IMG/VR virus record: IMGVR_UViG_2778261246_000008
Direction: 5' to 3' (one strand)
From: a virus
Lineage: Duplodnaviria; Heunggongvirae; Uroviricota; Caudoviricetes
Length of the DNA: 23,044 nt
This document shows, in pieces, positions 3,771 through 19,235 of this stretch. Every line of letters starts with the position of its first letter. The first letter of the stretch is position 1. Below the pieces are notes generated by a model. It did no database searches, had not been told where the DNA came from, and saw nothing but the letters and a program-made list of their open reading frames with translations. The translations under genes were made by a program, and so were the position numbers.

Positions 3771-6593
3771 ATGACGGCAGAGTACATCAGGGACTGGCAA
3801 CAACCGCGCCACGCAGTGGGGCGTGAAGGAACGGGGATCCCCGCTCCTGAATCCGCGCTTTCCTCCTGGCTGGATGCCTACCGGGTAGAGAACGAGCGCC
3901 GCCAGGAAATGGCTGATGCGGCCTTCTCCGCCACGCCACTGGGCAACCTGATTAATAAAAGCCTGGACGCACAGGAAAAACAGGACAAAACCATCACACT
4001 GGCAGGAGACGCCAGAAAACAGGCACGCGGCGCGGTGGATGAAGCCATGGCCTCGCTGCGCCTGCTGCCGTCCTATCTGCGCGATCCGCTTATTCGCCAC
4101 CTCTCCTTCCTGCGCAAAAAACAGGAAGCCGATCGCCGGAAAGGCAAAAAGAGCTGGCAGGCGGAACGCTATGCACGCGGAACCCTGCGCAAAATATTCG
4201 AACGTCTGGATCGCACTGACGGACACTGGCTGACACCGGGTTATCGCTCCCTTGCCGGACGCGAACGCCTGGACGATTTGCTTTACCTGCCGCAGCTCAA
4301 CAAACACCAGATACAGACGCTGGCCACCATGACGGCGGCGATGTTCAGCAGCACCTTCGAAAAACTCTGCGATGGCTTTGGCGCGACCGATGGCGAACTG
4401 ACCATGGATGTAACGCTGAAGGCGTATCAGATGCTGGCCCGCATGGCGTTACACCTGCACATCATGCCTCCACATTATGACGCACTGACAACAGATAAAG
4501 ACCGGAGGAACGAACCGGACACGGAGCTGCTGCCGGGCGCAATCCTTCGCCTGACCTGTGCGGAATGGTGGAAACGCAAACTGTGGCTGTTACGTTGCGA
4601 GTGGAGAGAAGAACAACTCCGCGCCGCCTGTCTGGTTTCCAGAAAAACATCACCCTATCTGAGCCAGGACGCGTTAAGCGAGTTTCGCGCACAGCGCGAG
4701 AAAACACGCGATTTCCTGAAAAGTTTCATGCTGGAAAACGAAGACGGGTTCACGATTGATCTCGAGACAGTGTATTACGCGGGAGTAAGTAACCCGGTTC
4801 ACCGTAAGGCAGAAATGATGGCCACCATGAAGGGGCTGGAACTTCTGGCCGAAGCCCGTGGCGACAAAGCGGTGTTTCTGACTGTCACCTGCCCGTCAAA
4901 ATACCACGCCACAACAGAGAACGGTCATCCGAATCCCAAATGGAACGGGGCCACCATGCGCGACTCCAGCGATTACCTAGTTAACACGTTTTTTGCAGCG
5001 GTCCGCAAGAAACTGAACCGCGACGGCCTGCGCTGGTATGGCATCCGCACGGTGGAGCCTCACCATGACGGCACCGTGCACTGGCATATGATGGTCTTTG
5101 CTCATCCGGAAGAAATCGACACCATTGTGTCCCACACCCGCGATATTGCCATTCAGGAAGATCGTCACGAGCTGGGTGATGATATTACCCCACGCTTTAA
5201 GGCGGAGTACGTCGACGGCTCAAAAGGCACGCCAACCAGCTACATCGCCACCTACATCGGAAAGAACCTGGACAGCCGCGCCGTGGATGGCATCGACCCG
5301 AAAACGGGCAAGCCACGCGTTGACCACGAAACAGGTAAATCAATGGCCGAGAGCGTGGAGCGCGCCATCGGCTGGGCGCGCCTTCACCGGGTCCGCCAGT
5401 TCCAGTTCTTTGGCATCCCCTCCCGTCAGGTGTGGCGTGAACTCCGCCGCCTTGCCAGCCAGATGGCACGCAACCCGGAAGGCCCGCAACGGCTGAAGGA
5501 TGACGCAATGGATGCGGTACTCGCTGCCGCTGATGCCGGATGTTTTGCCACCTACATTGAAAAACAGGGTGGCGTACTTGTTCCGCGCAAGGACTACCTG
5601 ATTCGCACAGCCTACGACCTCGCAGATGAGCTGAACGATTACGGCGAACAGAGTGTACAGATTTACGGGATCTGGTCGCCATTCATCGGGGAATCCTCCC
5701 GTGTGTGCACGCATCCGGATAACTGGAAGCTGGTAAGACGTAAACCGGAAGCGGAAGACAGCGCCCGCGAAAATGGTTTTGACCTTCAGGGCGGCCCTGC
5801 CGCCCCTTGGACTCGTGGCAATAACTGTCCCCGTGTACAGGAAACGGACAACAACGGGACAGAACAGCCGGAAGAACGGCCAGCACCGTGGCCGCAGCTC
5901 CCTGATGGCGTTGAAGTGAACGAATGGATGCGCTCACTGAAACGACACGAACGCCGGGCGCTGATGCGTTCGCTTCGTGACAAACAGGCAAAAAACAGCA
6001 GCGATGAAATGCAGAGCTGGACACAGAGCCGCAAACAGCCACGGCCTTTGCCTGATAACCACGAATTACTCGCTAAAGAATGGCGGGAGTCTGCTGAATC
6101 TCTCGGCCTGCATATCGGTGAACAACAGATGCAGCACCTGTTACGGGGCGGCAGTCTGTACGTTGACGGCAGCATCATTGCACCGCAGGGATTTGAAATT
6201 GTACGCAAACCGGATACCCGCCCGGACAGCCGAATCACGCAGCTCTGGCAGCGCCTGAGCCGTAATCATGGCGTAAGCAGCACGGAGATCCGCCATAACC
6301 CGGTCGCCAGCTATCTGGCACAGCTGGGGGCATCAGACCCTGAAGCCGCCGCACGCCTGGCATCCACACTTCAGCAGGACCAGAACACCATGAAAACACC
6401 CGTTACCGTGCTTTCTGACATGCTGCGCGCCATCCGCGACGCAGAGCACGCACAGAGAATCAGTGAAACCACTGAACGCGCCAGCCGCAAAGCAGACCTG
6501 CTGCGGGGTGGCATGACCAGTGGAAACAAAAAACAGACAGAAACGGGATTCACAAATCCCATAAATGAGCAAAAAACGTGCCGCGATATATGA
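3771..6593 (+). CDS. A: Rolling-circle replication initiator / endonuclease, P2 gpA family
   Basis: 940-aa ORF with the HUH metal-binding motif (TVHWHMMVF) and the paired catalytic tyrosines (TSYIATYIGKN) typical of P2 A-type initiators. Position after the early small genes matches P2. Confidence 0.9.
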   Translation: MTAEYIRDWQQPRHAVGREGTGIPAPESALSSWLDAYRVENERRQEMADAAFSATPLGNLINKSLDAQEKQDKTITLAGDARKQARGAVDEAMASLRLLPSYLRDPLIRHLSFLRKKQEADRRKGKKSWQAERYARGTLRKIFERLDRTDGHWLTPGYRSLAGRERLDDLLYLPQLNKHQIQTLATMTAAMFSSTFEKLCDGFGATDGELTMDVTLKAYQMLARMALHLHIMPPHYDALTTDKDRRNEPDTELLPGAILRLTCAEWWKRKLWLLRCEWREEQLRAACLVSRKTSPYLSQDALSEFRAQREKTRDFLKSFMLENEDGFTIDLETVYYAGVSNPVHRKAEMMATMKGLELLAEARGDKAVFLTVTCPSKYHATTENGHPNPKWNGATMRDSSDYLVNTFFAAVRKKLNRDGLRWYGIRTVEPHHDGTVHWHMMVFAHPEEIDTIVSHTRDIAIQEDRHELGDDITPRFKAEYVDGSKGTPTSYIATYIGKNLDSRAVDGIDPKTGKPRVDHETGKSMAESVERAIGWARLHRVRQFQFFGIPSRQVWRELRRLASQMARNPEGPQRLKDDAMDAVLAAADAGCFATYIEKQGGVLVPRKDYLIRTAYDLADELNDYGEQSVQIYGIWSPFIGESSRVCTHPDNWKLVRRKPEAEDSARENGFDLQGGPAAPWTRGNNCPRVQETDNNGTEQPEERPAPWPQLPDGVEVNEWMRSLKRHERRALMRSLRDKQAKNSSDEMQSWTQSRKQPRPLPDNHELLAKEWRESAESLGLHIGEQQMQHLLRGGSLYVDGSIIAPQGFEIVRKPDTRPDSRITQLWQRLSRNHGVSSTEIRHNPVASYLAQLGASDPEAAARLASTLQQDQNTMKTPVTVLSDMLRAIRDAEHAQRISETTERASRKADLLRGGMTSGNKKQTETGFTNPINEQKTCRDI

Positions 6594-6632
6594 AGCGCGC
6601 ACAAAACAGGCAAAAGCGGGATTTAAAAATCC
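6534..6632. repeat. Two copies of a ~27-bp direct repeat, each with a palindromic core (GGGATT-N4-AATCCC and GGATTT-AA-AAATCC)
   Basis: ACAGACAGAAACGGGATTCACAAATCC (6534-6560) and ACAGGCAAAAGCGGGATTTAAAAATCC (6606-6632), about 22/27 identical, spanning the 3' end of A and the A-parM intergenic region. Confidence 0.5.
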
Positions 6633-6669
6633 TGTAAACGATTAATTAATCAACATAAGGAAAAGCGAC

Positions 6670-7629
6670 ATGAAAATTTGTATCGACGACGGCTCCACCA
6701 ACATCAAGCTGGCATGGACTGAGAACGGCGAACGCCGCAACGCCATCAGCCCGAACAGCTTCAAGTCGGAATGGTCTGCGCCGTTCGGTGGCTCGCAGCC
6801 CGCGAACTACATGCTTGATGGCGTGCGCTATGGTTTTGATCCGGTCAGCGATCGCTTTGTCCAGACGACCGACACGCAATACCAGTACAGCGATGTGAAT
6901 GTCATTGCCATTCATCACGCGCTGGTCAAATCAGGCATCACGCCACAGGAGGTGGATGTGGTTGTCACCCTGCCATTGAGCGAGTATTTCGACACAAACG
7001 CACAGCCGGACATGGCCAACATCAGCCGCAAAAAAGCGAACGTTATGCGCCCGGTGGAGTACCAGAACGGCGAAACATTCACTATCCGTAACGTACGGGT
7101 TATGCCTGAATCCATTCCGGCTGGCTTTAAGGCACTGGCTGACATGAGTCCGTTTGAATCCCTGCTGATTGTGGATTTGGGCGGAACCACTCTGGATGTG
7201 GCAAAGGTTCAGGGGCAACTGGCAGGTATCAGCCAGGTGTTTTGCGATCCACACGTAGGCGTTTCTCTGATGGCCGATGCCGTACTGTCGGTGATGGCCA
7301 CTAACGGTATGCGCACCAGTCACCACATCGCCAATACCATTATCGAACATCGCCATAATGAAGCCTGGCTGCGCCAGCACATCCACAATGACGCGCATTA
7401 CGCCAGCCTGATGGCGATTATTCGTGAAAAGGAAGAAACACTGAAACAACGCGTGATCCGCGCGCTGGCGGGTTTTTCGGGTTACGGGCGGGTGATGGTT
7501 GTCGGTGGCGGGGCGGAGATTGTGGCACCCGCTATCCGCGAAGCCTGCGGAGTTAATGCGACTTTCATCGCGGACGGGGTGCCACAGTTTGCTCTGGTTA
7601 ATGGGCTGTACGCAATGGACAAGGAGTAA
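6670..7629 (+). CDS. parM: Actin-like ATPase of the ParM/StbA family
   Basis: The N-terminus MKICIDDGSTNIKL, plus SPNSFK, YSDVNVIAIHHAL, VMPESIPAG, LLIVDLGGTTLD and VVGGGAE, line up with the phosphate-1, connect and adenosine motifs of plasmid R1 ParM as recalled. AAGGA Shine-Dalgarno upstream. Confidence 0.85.
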   Translation: MKICIDDGSTNIKLAWTENGERRNAISPNSFKSEWSAPFGGSQPANYMLDGVRYGFDPVSDRFVQTTDTQYQYSDVNVIAIHHALVKSGITPQEVDVVVTLPLSEYFDTNAQPDMANISRKKANVMRPVEYQNGETFTIRNVRVMPESIPAGFKALADMSPFESLLIVDLGGTTLDVAKVQGQLAGISQVFCDPHVGVSLMADAVLSVMATNGMRTSHHIANTIIEHRHNEAWLRQHIHNDAHYASLMAIIREKEETLKQRVIRALAGFSGYGRVMVVGGGAEIVAPAIREACGVNATFIADGVPQFALVNGLYAMDKE

Positions 7630-7633
7630 ACCA

Positions 7634-7945
7634 ATGACGACACCAACCAGACGGATAAGTTTCTATCTGAAGCCCGCCGCCGTCAAGAACGAAGGTGAAG
7701 CATGCGCCTGGCTGGACAGCCTTACACCAGAAGCGCGCAAAAGCGGCCAACGCGTGGCTTTTCTGGCCGGGCTGGCACTTCTGAAAATGAATCCGGCAGA
7801 GGCTTACCGACTGGCTGCATGGGCTGATGATGAAGCGTTATCAGTGACACAAACCAGGACAGAACGCCCCGCGTCACAGCCAGTATCAACCGCACAGATA
7901 ACCAGTCAGATGGCTGGAAATATCCGGGCGTTATTTCCCGAATAA
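7634..7945 (+). CDS. parR: ParR/StbB-like adaptor, probable ribbon-helix-helix DNA-binding protein
   Basis: Immediately downstream of parM with an AAGGAG Shine-Dalgarno. RISFYLKPAAV...AFLAGLALL...IRALFPE parallels the R1 ParR pattern from memory. Size (103 aa) and position fit the family. Confidence 0.6.
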   Translation: MTTPTRRISFYLKPAAVKNEGEACAWLDSLTPEARKSGQRVAFLAGLALLKMNPAEAYRLAAWADDEALSVTQTRTERPASQPVSTAQITSQMAGNIRALFPE

Positions 7946-8008
7946 CACAACATCAGTGCGCATCCGCCCTGATGACTTTAACCCGGGAACATAAACAAGG
8001 GGGACACA

Positions 8009-8344
8009 ATGCAACGCATTGACAGAGAAAAAGCGCAGCGACTGATTGAGCGGATGGAAGCGCTGGCGAAAGAAGAAAATGTCAACATCCAAAAAATAGC
8101 TGAATGTGGCCAGATAGTTCTTCGTCGTGAAAAAGACCTCAAACAACTGATGTCTGGCGAAACCAGCAAAACATGGACTTCAGGTGAGGAGACGATTTAT
8201 TGCAGCTTCTGCAATAAATCCCAGTACGAAGTCACAAAGGTGATTGCCGGACCGTCTGTTTACATCTGCAATGAGTGCGTTGATTTGTGCAATGAAGTTA
8301 TCAGGAGAGAAGTGACAGACCATGAAGAAAAAACGCATGAATGA
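8009..8344 (+). CDS. Stand-alone ClpX zinc-binding-domain-like protein (C4 zinc ribbon) with an unrelated N-terminal helical extension
   Basis: The C-terminal segment [40 protein letters not shown] is near-colinear with the N-terminal zinc-binding domain of bacterial ClpX (CSFC...CxxC), but there is no AAA+ module. AGGGGGA Shine-Dalgarno. Confidence 0.8.
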
Positions 8345-8510
8345 CGAATTTGACGGCTTTTAATTTTATCGGGGCGCACTGTCGCCCTGCATGGAGAAAA
8401 ACAATAAAAAAGATGAATAACTGCTCATGTCAGACGCGCTGCGGGCAAGTCTGGCACCCTGCCCTGTCTCCGCAAAGGCTGTTGTCTTAACACGACAGAG
8501 TATGCCAGCA

Positions 8511-8918
8511 TTAAATATAATCTTCTTCGTAGTCGCTGATTAATTCATTGCCATAATCAGACAGCAATTTCAAAGCAAAGGTAACTTCCTCAAGGGTAGC
8601 TATCCCCATTGCTGAAAACACCGTTAATTTAACCAGCAGCAGGGAGTTTGAAAGTTCGGAAGAGTTCATCATTAAAAATATTGATGCAGCCTGAAAAGCT
8701 GTGCGTTTATTCCCATCATGAAAGGCATGAGCCTTGGCTATACCAATCAAATACATAGCAGCCAGAGCATGAATATCATCAACCCCTTCATAGTAGTGTA
8801 GTGTCCTGACGCGATTTAAAGCACCTTCAAGTAGCCCGTCATTGGCATTTCCGCTCTGGGGTAAAGTTTCAGCATGGATACGTTCTACTTGTTCTTTTGA
8901 CAAAAACACTATGTCCAT
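8511..8918 (-). CDS. doc: Doc-family toxin (Fic/Doc fold)
   Basis: Contains the Fic/Doc motif HAFHDGNKRTA. Its start overlaps the stop of the upstream antitoxin gene as ATGA on the minus strand. AT-rich relative to the phage backbone. Confidence 0.85.
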   Translation of the reverse strand: MDIVFLSKEQVERIHAETLPQSGNANDGLLEGALNRVRTLHYYEGVDDIHALAAMYLIGIAKAHAFHDGNKRTAFQAASIFLMMNSSELSNSLLLVKLTVFSAMGIATLEEVTFALKLLSDYGNELISDYEEDYI

Positions 8919-9274
8919 CAGTTATCCTCAAGCTTTTTAATGATATCCGCATGTTTTTCTCTTGTACGCTTCATTGCATCTTCAAAAGACAATCCTTTTT
9001 TTCTCTGTGCGACAAGAGCTGGATGACGTTTTTCCAGATCTCTCACTGCATTTATTAAGAGTGGTTGCTTCATTTTGTTTATTTGATCCCGCAGTTTTTT
9101 GGTTTTGCCAAGGACAGCCCGTATTTCAGGACTAAGATCAGAACCAGCAAGAACAACATCCTTCCCTCCCTGCGCCGTGATAACGACACTGCCACCGGAA
9201 GAAAGGTAATCCAGAATTTCACTCAGGTTCTCACGAAATTCATCATCAGTTACAGTTTTCATATTCATTTCCAT
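8918..9274 (-). CDS. phd: Phd/YefM-family antitoxin
   Basis: Small acidic protein immediately upstream of doc and translationally coupled to it. The N-terminus (KTVTDDEFRENLSEILDYL) fits the Phd/YefM pattern. The true start may be one of the internal ATGs (MEMNMK). Confidence 0.7.
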   Translation of the reverse strand: MEMNMKTVTDDEFRENLSEILDYLSSGGSVVITAQGGKDVVLAGSDLSPEIRAVLGKTKKLRDQINKMKQPLLINAVRDLEKRHPALVAQRKKGLSFEDAMKRTREKHADIIKKLEDN

Positions 9275-9348
9275 TATGCACGCCCATAACGTAAGTATAA
9301 CGGCTTGTTGGGCAGTAATAACACCGCCATATTTTCATTTTATACACC

Positions 9349-9374
9349 GCACAATAGTGCACAAATTTGCACAA
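9349..9374. repeat. Three GCACAA hexamers phased at 10 bp (9349, 9359, 9369), with a fourth at 9441
   Basis: Read directly in the sequence: ccGCACAAtagtGCACAAatttGCACAAttttt. One-helical-turn phasing suggests a protein-binding array, either a phd-doc operator or a terminase/cos accessory site. Confidence 0.4.
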
Positions 9375-9417
9375 TTTTTTTGAACAACTTTTTACCCTTC
9401 CGGCCCGCGTGGCGACT

Positions 9418-9520
9418 GGATCCGTCAAGGATCCGTGCGTGCACAAAAAAACGCGTTTTTTCTGCGCGCAGGTGACGGGGGAACAGCCCGCGTTTCAGGG
9501 GGTAAATAGCATCCCCTGAA
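9418..9520. other. Probable cos (cohesive end) region of the prophage
   Basis: Non-coding stretch between the cargo island and the portal gene Q, where cos lies in P2-like phages. GGTGACGGGGGAACAGCCC (9471-9489) matches the P2 19-nt cohesive end as I recall it (GGCGAGGCGGGGAAAGCAC) at about 13/19 positions. Flanked by a GGATCCGT direct repeat (9418-9425, 9429-9436), the perfect palindrome AAAAAACGCGTTTTTT (9446-9461) and the inverted repeat CAGGGG-N11-CCCCTG (9496-9518). Confidence 0.4.
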
Positions 9521-9748
9521 CGATGTCGCAGCGACACAACAGAATGGCTGTATTTCTCACGCTGAGCATGAAAAAGACGTGAGGACTTTTGATTTGATGG
9601 GGTAGCAGATAAGGCCGTCAAAATCGCACTGAGGCGGCGAGAACATGCAGTCAGCGCAGTGGGATTGCGTAAGAGCCTGACCGTCGATGATGGCGATAAG
9701 CTGGAAGACGTCGTGAAATTATCTGATTGATACAGGAGTTGGAGAGTC

Positions 9749-9771
9749 GGGGCATAAATTTTTTATGCCCC
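9749..9771. other. Perfect 10-bp-stem palindrome GGGGCATAAA-ttt-TTTATGCCCC just downstream of the Q stop
   Basis: Read directly. There is no flanking U-tract on either strand, so it is not a canonical intrinsic terminator; it could be a bidirectional terminator variant or a protein-binding site. Confidence 0.3.
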
Positions 9772-9798
9772 GGCGAAGCAGCAGACAAGCGAAGCGCG

Positions 9799-10845
9799 TC
9801 AGGATGTGGGCTGGGTGTCCAGCAGTGCGTAAGGGTTAAATCGGATCACCTCTTCGCCAAGCCAGTCATTGATATGCTTCATGGCCTCCATGACGGGCAT
9901 CAGCTCGTTAATTGCGTAAACCCGCGCGGCCTTCTCCACATCACCAAACGCACTTTTTTCGCCCGGCATCGCCCCCATCAGTTGCGGCGGAACGCGGTGC
10001 GCAGCCAGCACATCATCACGGGATGCCGCCTTAACATTCATGAACTCATCCTTTGCGGTGATCTGCTGGAACGGCAAAATTTGCACCCCCTCTTTGCCAC
10101 CGTTGGGGGCATGAATGAGCACGTTTTTAAACGCACCACCACCACGTGCACCCTGTAGCGTTTCTTTCAGGGAGTCCATGCTTTCGCGGTTTACCTGCGC
10201 TGCACCGATGTAGATGATGCACCCGGCGTGGGATCCGTTGTCGTAATACAGTTTTCTGAACATGTCCGCCGAATGAGACAGGCTGGCCGAGAGTAATGCG
10301 CCAAGATATTCCGGCATGCCGTAGATTTCCTGGTTAATGTCAGGATTCATCAGGTGGCACACTTTACCAGGGCGAAACTGAAACGCATCCTTGCCATCCT
10401 GCACATACCACCATGATTCAAGATCGCTTCCGCGTCGCATGTATTTCGCCAGGGCGTGCCGTAATTTAAGCGGTTCGCCGAGCATATTGCTTCGAAGCTC
10501 AAGGAATGCGTTACCGAACACAAACCAGTCCAGCGCCAGCGCCGAGAAATCCTGCCGGGAAAGCAGCGGGTGCGGAATATAGCAGCCGAGCAATACATTG
10601 CGCTTAAAGTAAAGCGCAGACTGATGCCAGGACGTTTGCCGGGCAGCTCTTGCCAGACCGTACCAGTCTACCGGGGTTTCATACCACCGCCCGTTATCAG
10701 CACAGTACATATTGTCCAGCAAATCATGCCCGGTCAGGCGATAAGGACCATCAAAAGTGAATGCACTGAGCGACGATTCTTTCCTGAGTGCATCAGCGAG
10801 ATCAATGCGTGAACTCATGCGCACTTTTTTATTTTTTCTGCTCAT
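9799..10845 (-). CDS. Q: Portal protein (P2 gpQ family)
   Basis: 348-aa ORF adjacent to the putative cos and directly downstream of the large terminase gene, with a 1-nt ATGA overlap. Order and size match P2 Q. Confidence 0.88.
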   Translation of the reverse strand: MSRKNKKVRMSSRIDLADALRKESSLSAFTFDGPYRLTGHDLLDNMYCADNGRWYETPVDWYGLARAARQTSWHQSALYFKRNVLLGCYIPHPLLSRQDFSALALDWFVFGNAFLELRSNMLGEPLKLRHALAKYMRRGSDLESWWYVQDGKDAFQFRPGKVCHLMNPDINQEIYGMPEYLGALLSASLSHSADMFRKLYYDNGSHAGCIIYIGAAQVNRESMDSLKETLQGARGGGAFKNVLIHAPNGGKEGVQILPFQQITAKDEFMNVKAASRDDVLAAHRVPPQLMGAMPGEKSAFGDVEKAARVYAINELMPVMEAMKHINDWLGEEVIRFNPYALLDTQPTS

Positions 10846-18657: not shown

Positions 18658-19235
18658 GCGCAGAACTCATGCGACTGCTGAGCAACATCATCCGTACCGG
18701 GATCATCTCTGAAGTTGATGAGGAATCCTGGTGCGTGCGCGTTCGCAGCGGCGAACTGGAAACAGGCTGGCTGCGCTGGAACACCACGCGCGCGGGAGCC
18801 TTCAATGTGTGGCTGCCGCCATCACCCGGCGAACAGGTGGTAATTGCCTGCATTGGCGGCAACCCGGAAACCGCCATGATAATTGGCAGCCTGTGGAGTG
18901 ATGCCATTCCGGCCCCCGGCAAAAGCCTGAAAGAAATCGTGGTCAGCGCGCCGGATGGCACGGTGTTCCGCTACGACGCGGACGCAGGCGCACTGAGCGC
19001 CAGCGGCATGAAAACAGCCACCCTGCAGGCATCCGTCAGCGTGACACTGGATACGCCCGTCGTGGAATGCACAGACCTTCTGAGAACGGCGACGCTTGAC
19101 GTCACAAAAGGGGGAAAGATGAGCGGCAATATCACGCACAGCGGCGGCAATTTCACCTCAAACGGCATCACAGTGCATACGCATAAACACGGTGGCGTTA
19201 AAGGTGGCAGCGATTCGACAGGAGGCCCGCAGTGA
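18654..19235 (+). CDS. V: Baseplate spike/hub protein (P2 gpV family)
   Basis: GTG start with a GGAGG Shine-Dalgarno; 193-aa Gly/Ser/Thr-rich C-terminus; order S-V-W-J-I-H. Confidence 0.82.
   Translation: MSAELMRLLSNIIRTGIISEVDEESWCVRVRSGELETGWLRWNTTRAGAFNVWLPPSPGEQVVIACIGGNPETAMIIGSLWSDAIPAPGKSLKEIVVSAPDGTVFRYDADAGALSASGMKTATLQASVSVTLDTPVVECTDLLRTATLDVTKGGKMSGNITHSGGNFTSNGITVHTHKHGGVKGGSDSTGGPQ

Follow-up and report, generated by a model that had tools for sequence, protein, structure and literature searches.

Do the five genes that lie between the replication gene A and the portal gene of a P2-family prophage make up a single biological system, or are they separate pieces of cargo that share an address? 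The question is raised by a stretch of viral DNA of 23,044 nucleotides (the window; IMG/VR record IMGVR_UViG_2778261246_000008), which represents a P88-like prophage of the P2 family (genus Xuanwuvirus, Peduoviridae). Its 2847-bp island (6594-9440) contains genes for an actin-like partition ATPase (parM), a partition adaptor (parR), and a small protein that resembles the zinc-binding domain (ZBD) of ClpX (here called ClpX-zf), together with an antitoxin-toxin pair (phd-doc). An earlier note on this DNA proposed that the five genes could form one previously undescribed circuit, serving either lysogen maintenance or abortive infection. The island is, instead, very probably a mosaic of three independently inherited modules within the A-to-portal variable region of the prophage. 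The modules would coincide owing to a recombination hotspot rather than to any mutual need.

By sequence, the parts of the island are a ParMRC-type partition cassette, a Phd-Doc-type toxin-antitoxin (TA) pair whose antitoxin is atypically long, and a ClpX N-domain protein that stands alone. All five genes are found where the earlier note had placed them, and each of its domain calls holds, with that for Phd falling just short of the Pfam cut-off. The same is true of its description of the layout, in which a co-directional parM-parR-ClpX-zf set faces a convergent phd-doc pair, and of its placement of the island at the P2 tin/old (A-Q) hotspot, between A (PF05840) and the portal gene (PF04860). 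The interval between these two genes corresponds to this hotspot and holds the five open reading frames (ORFs) in question.

The modules differ greatly in how often they are found. Among 5426 complete Escherichia coli genomes, parM-parR is present in 1318 (at 1468 places), this allele of ClpX-zf in 112, and phd-doc in 20, with the whole island in 18; the five-gene arrangement accounts for about 1.5% of the parMR-bearing prophages. Two of the 20 phd-doc genomes, UPEC132 and strain 300444, have the TA pair next to a truncated parM. The UPEC132 locus (L002, 4841-5005) harbors a deletion that begins near codon 55 of parM and ends just upstream of doc; it reduces parM to 165 bp and removes parR and ClpX-zf, but the strain is viable and its phd-doc is intact. 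In phages P884B11 and 520873, other genes fill the slot after parR. Downstream of ClpX-zf, 39 P88-like IMG/VR loci carry 12 classes of cargo, and phd-doc is the cargo in only four of them. E. coli CDE6306 (L083, 5057-6992), which represents another cargo class, has a ClpX-zf pseudogene with an internal stop, followed by a 174-amino-acid hypothetical protein, an Ead/Ea22 fragment, and a 197-amino-acid hypothetical protein. The last of the series is a toxin of the YafO family, and phd-doc is thus not the only type of toxin to occur downstream of ClpX-zf. The points at which similarity between loci breaks off fall at gene boundaries (7945, 8341, 8485, and 9349).

The modules are also found apart in more distant relatives. 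P2-like prophages of Enterobacter hormaechei, Citrobacter youngae, Klebsiella sp., and Candidatus Symbiopectobacterium have relatives of Doc with 80-89% identity next to the portal gene, as does one viral contig. The A proteins of these five loci are only 30-36% identical to that of the window, and no ParM, ParR, or ClpX-zf is detectable in them; the neighbors are DNA methyltransferase, KAP NTPase, and DUF262-type genes. A divergent ClpX-zf hidden between doc and A was considered for the Enterobacter, Citrobacter, Klebsiella, and Symbiopectobacterium loci, and no such ORF exists there. Conversely, full-length homologues of ClpX-zf (43-53% identity) occupy the A-to-portal slot of three other P2-like lineages that lack ParM, ParR, and Doc. 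In other lineages, the small ORFs that precede ClpX-zf were considered as divergent forms of ParR and ruled out, a parR remnant being present only in the element L046, which is described below. Outside the P2 family, the P1-like phage-plasmid pEc1079_2 (L057, 5776-6138) encodes a ClpX C4 zinc-finger homologue with 52% identity over the matched part. Its neighbors in an early-gene block are DUF4406, Ead/Ea22, and metallophosphoesterase genes; ref, icd, and ash are near, and any partition or phd-doc gene is far away.

Since the modules are found apart in close and distant relatives alike, the three are separable in every pairing. The earlier note had proposed a comparison of gene content at this junction, and had named independent occurrence in related prophages, without conserved linkage, as an outcome that would speak against its claim. 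That comparison finds the modules occurring independently, and the claim of a single system therefore fails on co-occurrence: it is contradicted by the counts of 1318, 112, and 20 genomes, by the phd-doc deletion variant, by the independent homologues, and by the 12 classes of cargo after ClpX-zf.

Base composition follows the same divisions. The GC content of parM and parR is 55%, which matches the backbone, and that of the window is 53.6%, while ClpX-zf has 44.0% and phd-doc 40-41%. The earlier note was correct in describing phd-doc as AT-rich relative to its surroundings, but the AT-rich DNA is not confined to that pair; as ClpX-zf is AT-rich too, the compositional break begins after parR and not after ClpX-zf. 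The suggestion that phd-doc was acquired separately is supported. ClpX-zf, in turn, is probably a separate AT-rich accessory gene, the first of the AT-rich cargo.

What, then, does each module do? The parM gene (6670-7629, plus strand) encodes an R1-type actin-like partition ATPase, with Pfam matches to StbA_N (PF06406, 4.1e-82, 274 bits) and to the corresponding C-terminal domain (PF21523, 1.6e-67, 227 bits), and the protein aligns with R1 ParM (PDB 1mwk, E = 9e-93) over its full length (residues 2-316). After a gap of 4 nucleotides (nt) comes parR (7634-7945, plus strand), whose product is a StbB-type adaptor and DNA-binding protein (PF10784 Plasmid_stab_B, 1.6e-24, 85.9 bits vs a cut-off of 25; phrog_2515, partition protein, 1.1e-58), for which a PDB sequence search gives no match. 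Both ParM and ParR are annotated as partition proteins in PHROGs, and parR is always directly 3' of parM in the examined P88-like loci in which both genes are intact. The parM gene is under strong purifying selection, with a ratio of nonsynonymous to synonymous substitution rates (dN/dS) of 0.08 across 35 alleles, which is as strong as that on A (0.13) and terminase (0.14); the values for ParR and the portal are 0.31 and 0.02, respectively.

A candidate parC, or ParR operator (6527-6641), is located directly upstream of parM. It consists of two 42-nt direct repeats (6527-6568 and 6600-6641), the first of which lies inside the 3' end of A, and each repeat has a GGGATT-N4-AATCC palindrome (6545-6560 and 6618-6633). 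The palindrome occurs at only these two sites in the window, a count that none of 100 shuffles reaches, and across P88-like loci its arms are conserved and its spacers variable. The same pattern with a 6-nt spacer gives only chance-level matches, and the 4-nt spacer is specific. The palindromic repeats are a plausible small parC or operator to which ParR would bind. Together, parC, parM, and parR appear to be an R1-type (type II, actin-like) cassette that P88-like phages have as a set of genes at the level of the lineage. If it works as in R1, ParR would attach the two palindromic repeats to ParM filaments, and these would push sister DNAs apart. Read most economically, the cassette would partition the phage while it exists, transiently or occasionally, as an episome, and this circular episome could arise after infection, after excision, or when integration fails.

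A complete P88-like genome of 34461 bp has been deposited as a circular non-mobilizable 'plasmid' (NZ_CP148288.1, pZ1323PEC0009-2; L082). It keeps an intact integrase, cox, parMR, and the structural genes, and also has a Hok/Gef gene and a Com/methyltransferase pair. The record may stem from a genuine episome or from an excised form that the assembly picked up. Phage P88 itself is a mitomycin-inducible chromosomal prophage, and literature searches on P88 parM and on Xuanwuvirus found nothing relevant among the papers available.

The phd-doc cassette (8486-9348; 40.8% GC) lies between the positions at which similarity to other P88-like prophages is lost (8485) and regained (9349). The toxin gene doc (8511-8918, minus strand) encodes a 135-amino-acid death-on-curing toxin with the Fic fold, which matches the Fic family (PF02661, 3.5e-11) and passes the DOC_P1 model of NCBIfam (TIGR01550, 53.6 bits vs a cut-off of 38.65). 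It aligns to P1 Doc (3k33, E = 6e-13), and the HxFxDxNKR motif is kept as HAFHDGNKR. The antitoxin gene phd (8918-9274, minus strand; the RefSeq start is four codons later) encodes a Phd-like protein of 118 amino acids, which is atypically long, with matches to PhdYeFM (PF02604, 7.8e-07) and phrog_375 (4e-05) and none in NCBIfam or among PDB sequences. In PHROGs, the two proteins are a Doc-like toxin and a Phd-like antitoxin. Both genes are on the same strand, with the antitoxin first, and the stop codon of phd overlaps the start of doc by one base (8918), as in a bicistronic operon with coupled translation.

Across all 20 E. coli genomes in which it is found, the cassette is 99.5-100% identical, and the whole island is 98.2-100% identical. 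The near-identity of the cassette relative to the more variable island suggests a recent spread by recombination. No convincing repeats flank the cassette, and there is hence no sign of transposition or site-specific insertion. The pair may best be pictured as a self-contained type II TA cassette dropped in beside the portal gene. If it works as in P1, a labile antitoxin would neutralize the Doc kinase toxin, the cell would become addicted to the prophage, and infected cells may abort. By this analogy, phd-doc should be a self-sufficient addiction module and is possibly an abortive-infection module.

ClpX-zf (8009-8344, plus strand) is the least familiar of the parts. Its product of 111 amino acids matches zf-C4_ClpX (PF06689, 3.1e-17, 62.6 bits) at residues 64-99 and belongs to phrog_6797, a family of unknown function. 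An AlphaFold model (mean predicted local distance difference test score, pLDDT, of 79.5) comprises a two-helix hairpin (residues 6-48), a disordered linker (53-59), and a C4 zinc-binding domain (64-109). Over residues 59-104, identity to the ClpX ZBD of E. coli is 72-78%, and the zinc module superimposes on that domain with a root-mean-square deviation of 0.7-0.8 Å, including the domain in complex with the SspB tail (2DS8). The four zinc cysteines are invariant across the family. The AAA+ module, with its ClpP-docking loop, is not present in ClpX-zf, which scores only 49.3 bits against the TIGR00382 cut-off of 370.75 and covers model positions 6-53 only. Recent capture of a host clpX was ruled out, as the ClpX-zf gene hit clpX in no genome when searched with megablast, and the likeness is therefore at the protein level only.

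The N-terminal hairpin gave no specific match in a fold search. A profile built on the hairpin alone retrieved 18 proteins among 1.84 billion representatives, of which about 12 are real, and the members retrieved are 109-129 amino acids long and share the same layout of hairpin, linker, and zinc module. The only fairly new part of the island is this small uncharacterized family, in which a unique helical hairpin is joined to a copy of the ClpX ZBD. A literature search for stand-alone phage ClpX zinc-domain proteins found nothing relevant among the papers available.

The transcription of ClpX-zf is probably by read-through from the A/parMR transcript, because only 63 nt separate it from parR and no convincing terminator lies between them. 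A 49-amino-acid ORF without a family match (8341-8490, plus strand) follows, its start overlapping the ClpX-zf stop codon (ATGA). The DNA up to 8485 is common to the YafO-type cargo class, and this ORF may be a leftover of earlier cargo or an intergenic spacer.

Free ClpX N-domain reportedly inhibits, in trans, the degradation of substrates that depend on the N-domain, and a role as a ClpX decoy or anti-adaptor is for this reason the best guess for ClpX-zf. On the grounds of structural mimicry, such a role is the most likely one, and the protein would then compete with the N-domains of ClpX for N-domain-dependent substrates and adaptors. A fuller version of this scheme is put forward only tentatively. 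In it, ClpX-zf might sequester substrates or adaptors such as SspB, or might use its zinc module to heterodimerize with ClpX N-domains while the hairpin recruits or blocks a partner, and so retune host ClpXP early in the growth of P2-like and P1-like phages; where phd-doc is present, it might also gate antitoxin turnover.

A very distant P2-like element, L046 (IMGVR_UViG_2757320580_000004), has to be considered before the modules are declared indifferent to one another. Its A, portal, and terminase proteins are 30-34% identical to those of the window (with the backbone at about 30-35%), and its genes run in the order doc (57% identity), phd (28%), a parR pseudogene remnant, and ClpX-zf (35%). 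The remnant (5640-5995) has lost its 5' end and has an in-frame stop, and it retains the conserved '...AFFPE' C-terminus. Its presence beside ClpX-zf indicates that the combination of parMR and ClpX-zf once existed in a second backbone. In L046, phd-doc appears to have taken the place of parM, a second landing beside ClpX-zf and one in another position.

The strongest form of association, that parM, parR, ClpX-zf, phd, and doc are one interdependent lysogen-maintenance or abortive-infection system, is very improbable. The five genes stand side by side in 18 E. coli genomes and four IMG/VR contigs, and a ClpX-domain protein beside phd-doc is suggestive, as P1 Phd is reportedly a substrate of ClpXP. 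However, relatives both close and distant have each module without the other two, a deletion variant retains phd-doc in the absence of parR and ClpX-zf, base composition differs between the modules, and no defense-system model matches the set, which in any case occurs in so small a share of the parMR-bearing prophages. A weaker coupling, still unlikely, is that ClpX-zf modulates ClpXP-dependent turnover of the Phd-like antitoxin, for example by shielding Phd during the lytic cycle so that Doc does not abort the phage, which would favor the retention of phd-doc beside ClpX-zf. This idea draws on the adjacency of the two in two unrelated P2-like backbones, that of the window and that of L046, with different insertion points, on the 18 of 20 E. 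coli phd-doc copies that adjoin ClpX-zf, and on the ZBD being a near-copy of the host domain. It presupposes that degradation of Phd needs the ClpX N-domain, and it has to accommodate five other P2-like loci with the same phd-doc family and no ClpX-zf, the 94 of 112 E. coli ClpX-zf genomes that lack phd-doc, and the tolerance of UPEC132 for phd-doc without ClpX-zf; two co-occurrences within a locus of 2-3 kb are also weak statistics.

Two further alternatives concern what individual modules are for. A serious, if less probable, alternative is that ParMR serves something other than plasmid-type inheritance, either by positioning and separating replicating genomes in the lytic cycle or with ParR acting as a transcriptional regulator only. 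Such a role would suit a cassette that stands at the end of the early/replication operon and is chromosomal at 1466 of its 1468 E. coli places, in a lineage whose namesake P88 is a mitomycin-inducible chromosomal prophage, and in which parM is nonetheless under purifying selection matching that on A and terminase. It is less easily reconciled with the very close relationship between this ParM and a genuine partition ATPase of a plasmid, with the record of a complete P88-like genome as a circular 34.5-kb replicon, or with the preference for plasmid maintenance expressed in the text of Rousset et al. 2022. A possible, though not the favored, function of the cargo half (phd-doc, perhaps with ClpX-zf) is as an abortive-infection defense against other phages in the first place, rather than as a means of prophage addiction. 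The locus is an established defense hotspot of which most characterized content is defensive, TA systems from such hotspots have been validated as defenses, and the neighbors of the cassette in other lineages (a KAP NTPase and a DUF262 protein) are defense-like. PADLOC-DB 2.0, on the other hand, gives no match for ParM, ParR, ClpX-zf, or Phd and only weak Fic-domain matches for Doc (best 7.4e-06, to candidate PDC-S23), and Doc/Fic TA pairs do not appear among the validated defenses at this locus in the accessible text of Rousset 2022, Vassallo 2022, or the 2026 Nucleic Acids Research (NAR) survey. The accessible text of this last survey, which deals with P2/P4 hotspots, makes no mention of ParM, Doc, Fic, or ClpX.

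Some observations weigh against a mosaic of independent modules with the functions suggested here. The E. coli distribution is nested rather than random, with 18 of 20 phd-doc copies adjoining ClpX-zf, and the two are neighbors in L046 too, which leaves room for a facultative interaction. The dN/dS of ClpX-zf is 0.45, indicating weaker constraint, and its decoy role is deduced from similarity. The Phd match to PF02604 scores 29.2 bits, just under the cut-off of 29.8, and extends over residues 5-42 only. For the partition cassette, just two of the 1468 E. coli places are on plasmids, and its candidate parC has only two visible ParR-type sites, against the ten iterons of R1 parC.

The surroundings of the island place it within the P88-like lineage. 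The island is 97.5% identical to phage P88 across its first 61%, the chromosomes of E. coli C7 and C3 are 100% identical to the element, and the integrase is at the left end (start) of the window. The left border of the hotspot is the replication gene A (3771-6593, plus strand), which encodes a 940-amino-acid protein (PF05840 Phage_GPA, 6.3e-132) with 97% identity to P88 gp16. Its GPA domain covers residues 179-503 only, and a C-terminal extension of about 440 residues has no family match; in the other lineages examined, the A proteins are 763-838 amino acids long. The right border is the portal gene Q (9799-10845, minus strand; PF04860), which is 99-100% identical across P88-like loci.

Several smaller features of this region may be recorded. 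In several P2-like lineages outside the P88 group, a conserved small ORF lies directly after gene A and overlaps its end; it is not present in the window. The copies, which are in L046 (4473-4763), L059 (5580-5879), L058 (5140-5577), and L063 (5364-5795), have no Pfam match and have a common C-terminal segment, such as '...ARQVMNIYRELEAEK...RQILAHK' in L046 and L059. On the other side of the island, the AT-rich palindrome GTGCACAAATTTGCAC (9353-9378) lies upstream of phd, in backbone that is conserved and begins right beyond the phd-doc cassette. A hairpin with a perfect 11-bp stem directly after the portal stop codon (9748-9772) is probably a bidirectional terminator, and the cos region is expected between this hairpin and the palindrome. 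A scan of the whole window with Rfam found no family at threshold, which leaves the island without a known RNA, be it hok/sok-like or of another kind. The scan for promoters and terminators returned one promoter-like site, against 3.4 expected, and only weak hairpins, and is uninformative. Finally, a 90-nt tRNA-Leu(CAG) called by ARAGORN within the tail and baseplate genes (18941-19030, minus strand) overlaps long ORFs on both strands and is probably a false positive.

How much of this is new? The P2 A-Q locus is an established hotspot of diversity and defense, and a putative partition system is found here in about a quarter of P2-like phages, according to the text of Rousset et al. 2022. Table S5 of that paper already lists the exact five-domain arrangement, so the earlier note's view of the combination as undescribed does not stand. 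In the part of the paper available here, the systems said to have been cloned or tested do not include the arrangement, and no function is given to the zf-C4_ClpX protein. The domain counts in Table S5 are at least 489 for StbA, at least 43 for ClpX, and at least 10 for Phd, with proportions as in the E. coli genome counts here. So far as this source goes, the five-gene combination is catalogued but uncharacterized.

As a five-gene system, then, the island is unimportant, its linkage being an accident of a recombination hotspot and its arrangement already catalogued. The broad idea of maintenance-type functions put forward in the earlier note is nevertheless supported, and the interest lies in the separate modules. 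An integrating prophage found in roughly one in four E. coli genomes keeps parM, and an answer to why it does so would clarify whether P2-like phages have a hidden episomal phase. ClpX-zf suggests itself as a possible viral decoy aimed at a central bacterial protease, given that a near-exact copy of the substrate-recognition domain of ClpX is kept in several phage lineages; if the proposed role is true, phages would have a new class of factor that acts as an anti-protease or anti-adaptor.

All of these modules can be set beside systems that are already known. The A-Q hotspot of Rousset et al. 2022, as far as its accessible text and table extend, is the same gpA-gpQ locus and has the same partition system and domain arrangement as the window. 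The partition cassette mirrors ParMRC of R1 (stbA/stbB) in its full-length R1-like ParM, in its PF10784 ParR, and in the order of repeats, parM, and parR, with the palindromic repeats directly upstream. It differs in that it resides in a phage that is almost always integrated, where its stabilizing role is putative, and in that it has only two visible palindromes of 15-16 bp in place of ten iterons, with one of the repeats inside the coding region of gene A. In some respects the TA cassette reflects phd-doc of P1, with a toxin that passes the DOC_P1 model and has the catalytic HxFxDxNKR motif, an upstream antitoxin that overlaps the toxin start and has a Phd/YefM-like N-terminus, and a carrier that, like P1, is a temperate phage also having a partition system. 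However, the 118-amino-acid antitoxin of the window has a long non-homologous C-terminal part, falls under the Pfam cut-off, and has no match in the PDB, and its carrier is an integrating P2-like phage, with the cassette moving among P2-like hotspots. Finally, ClpX-zf compares with the N-domain of E. coli ClpX (PDB 1OVX, 2DS5-2DS8), of which its ZBD is a near-copy at 72-78% identity and 0.7-0.8 Å; in contrast to ClpX, it has no AAA+ module, and its zinc domain is preceded by a hairpin that is unique to a small phage family.

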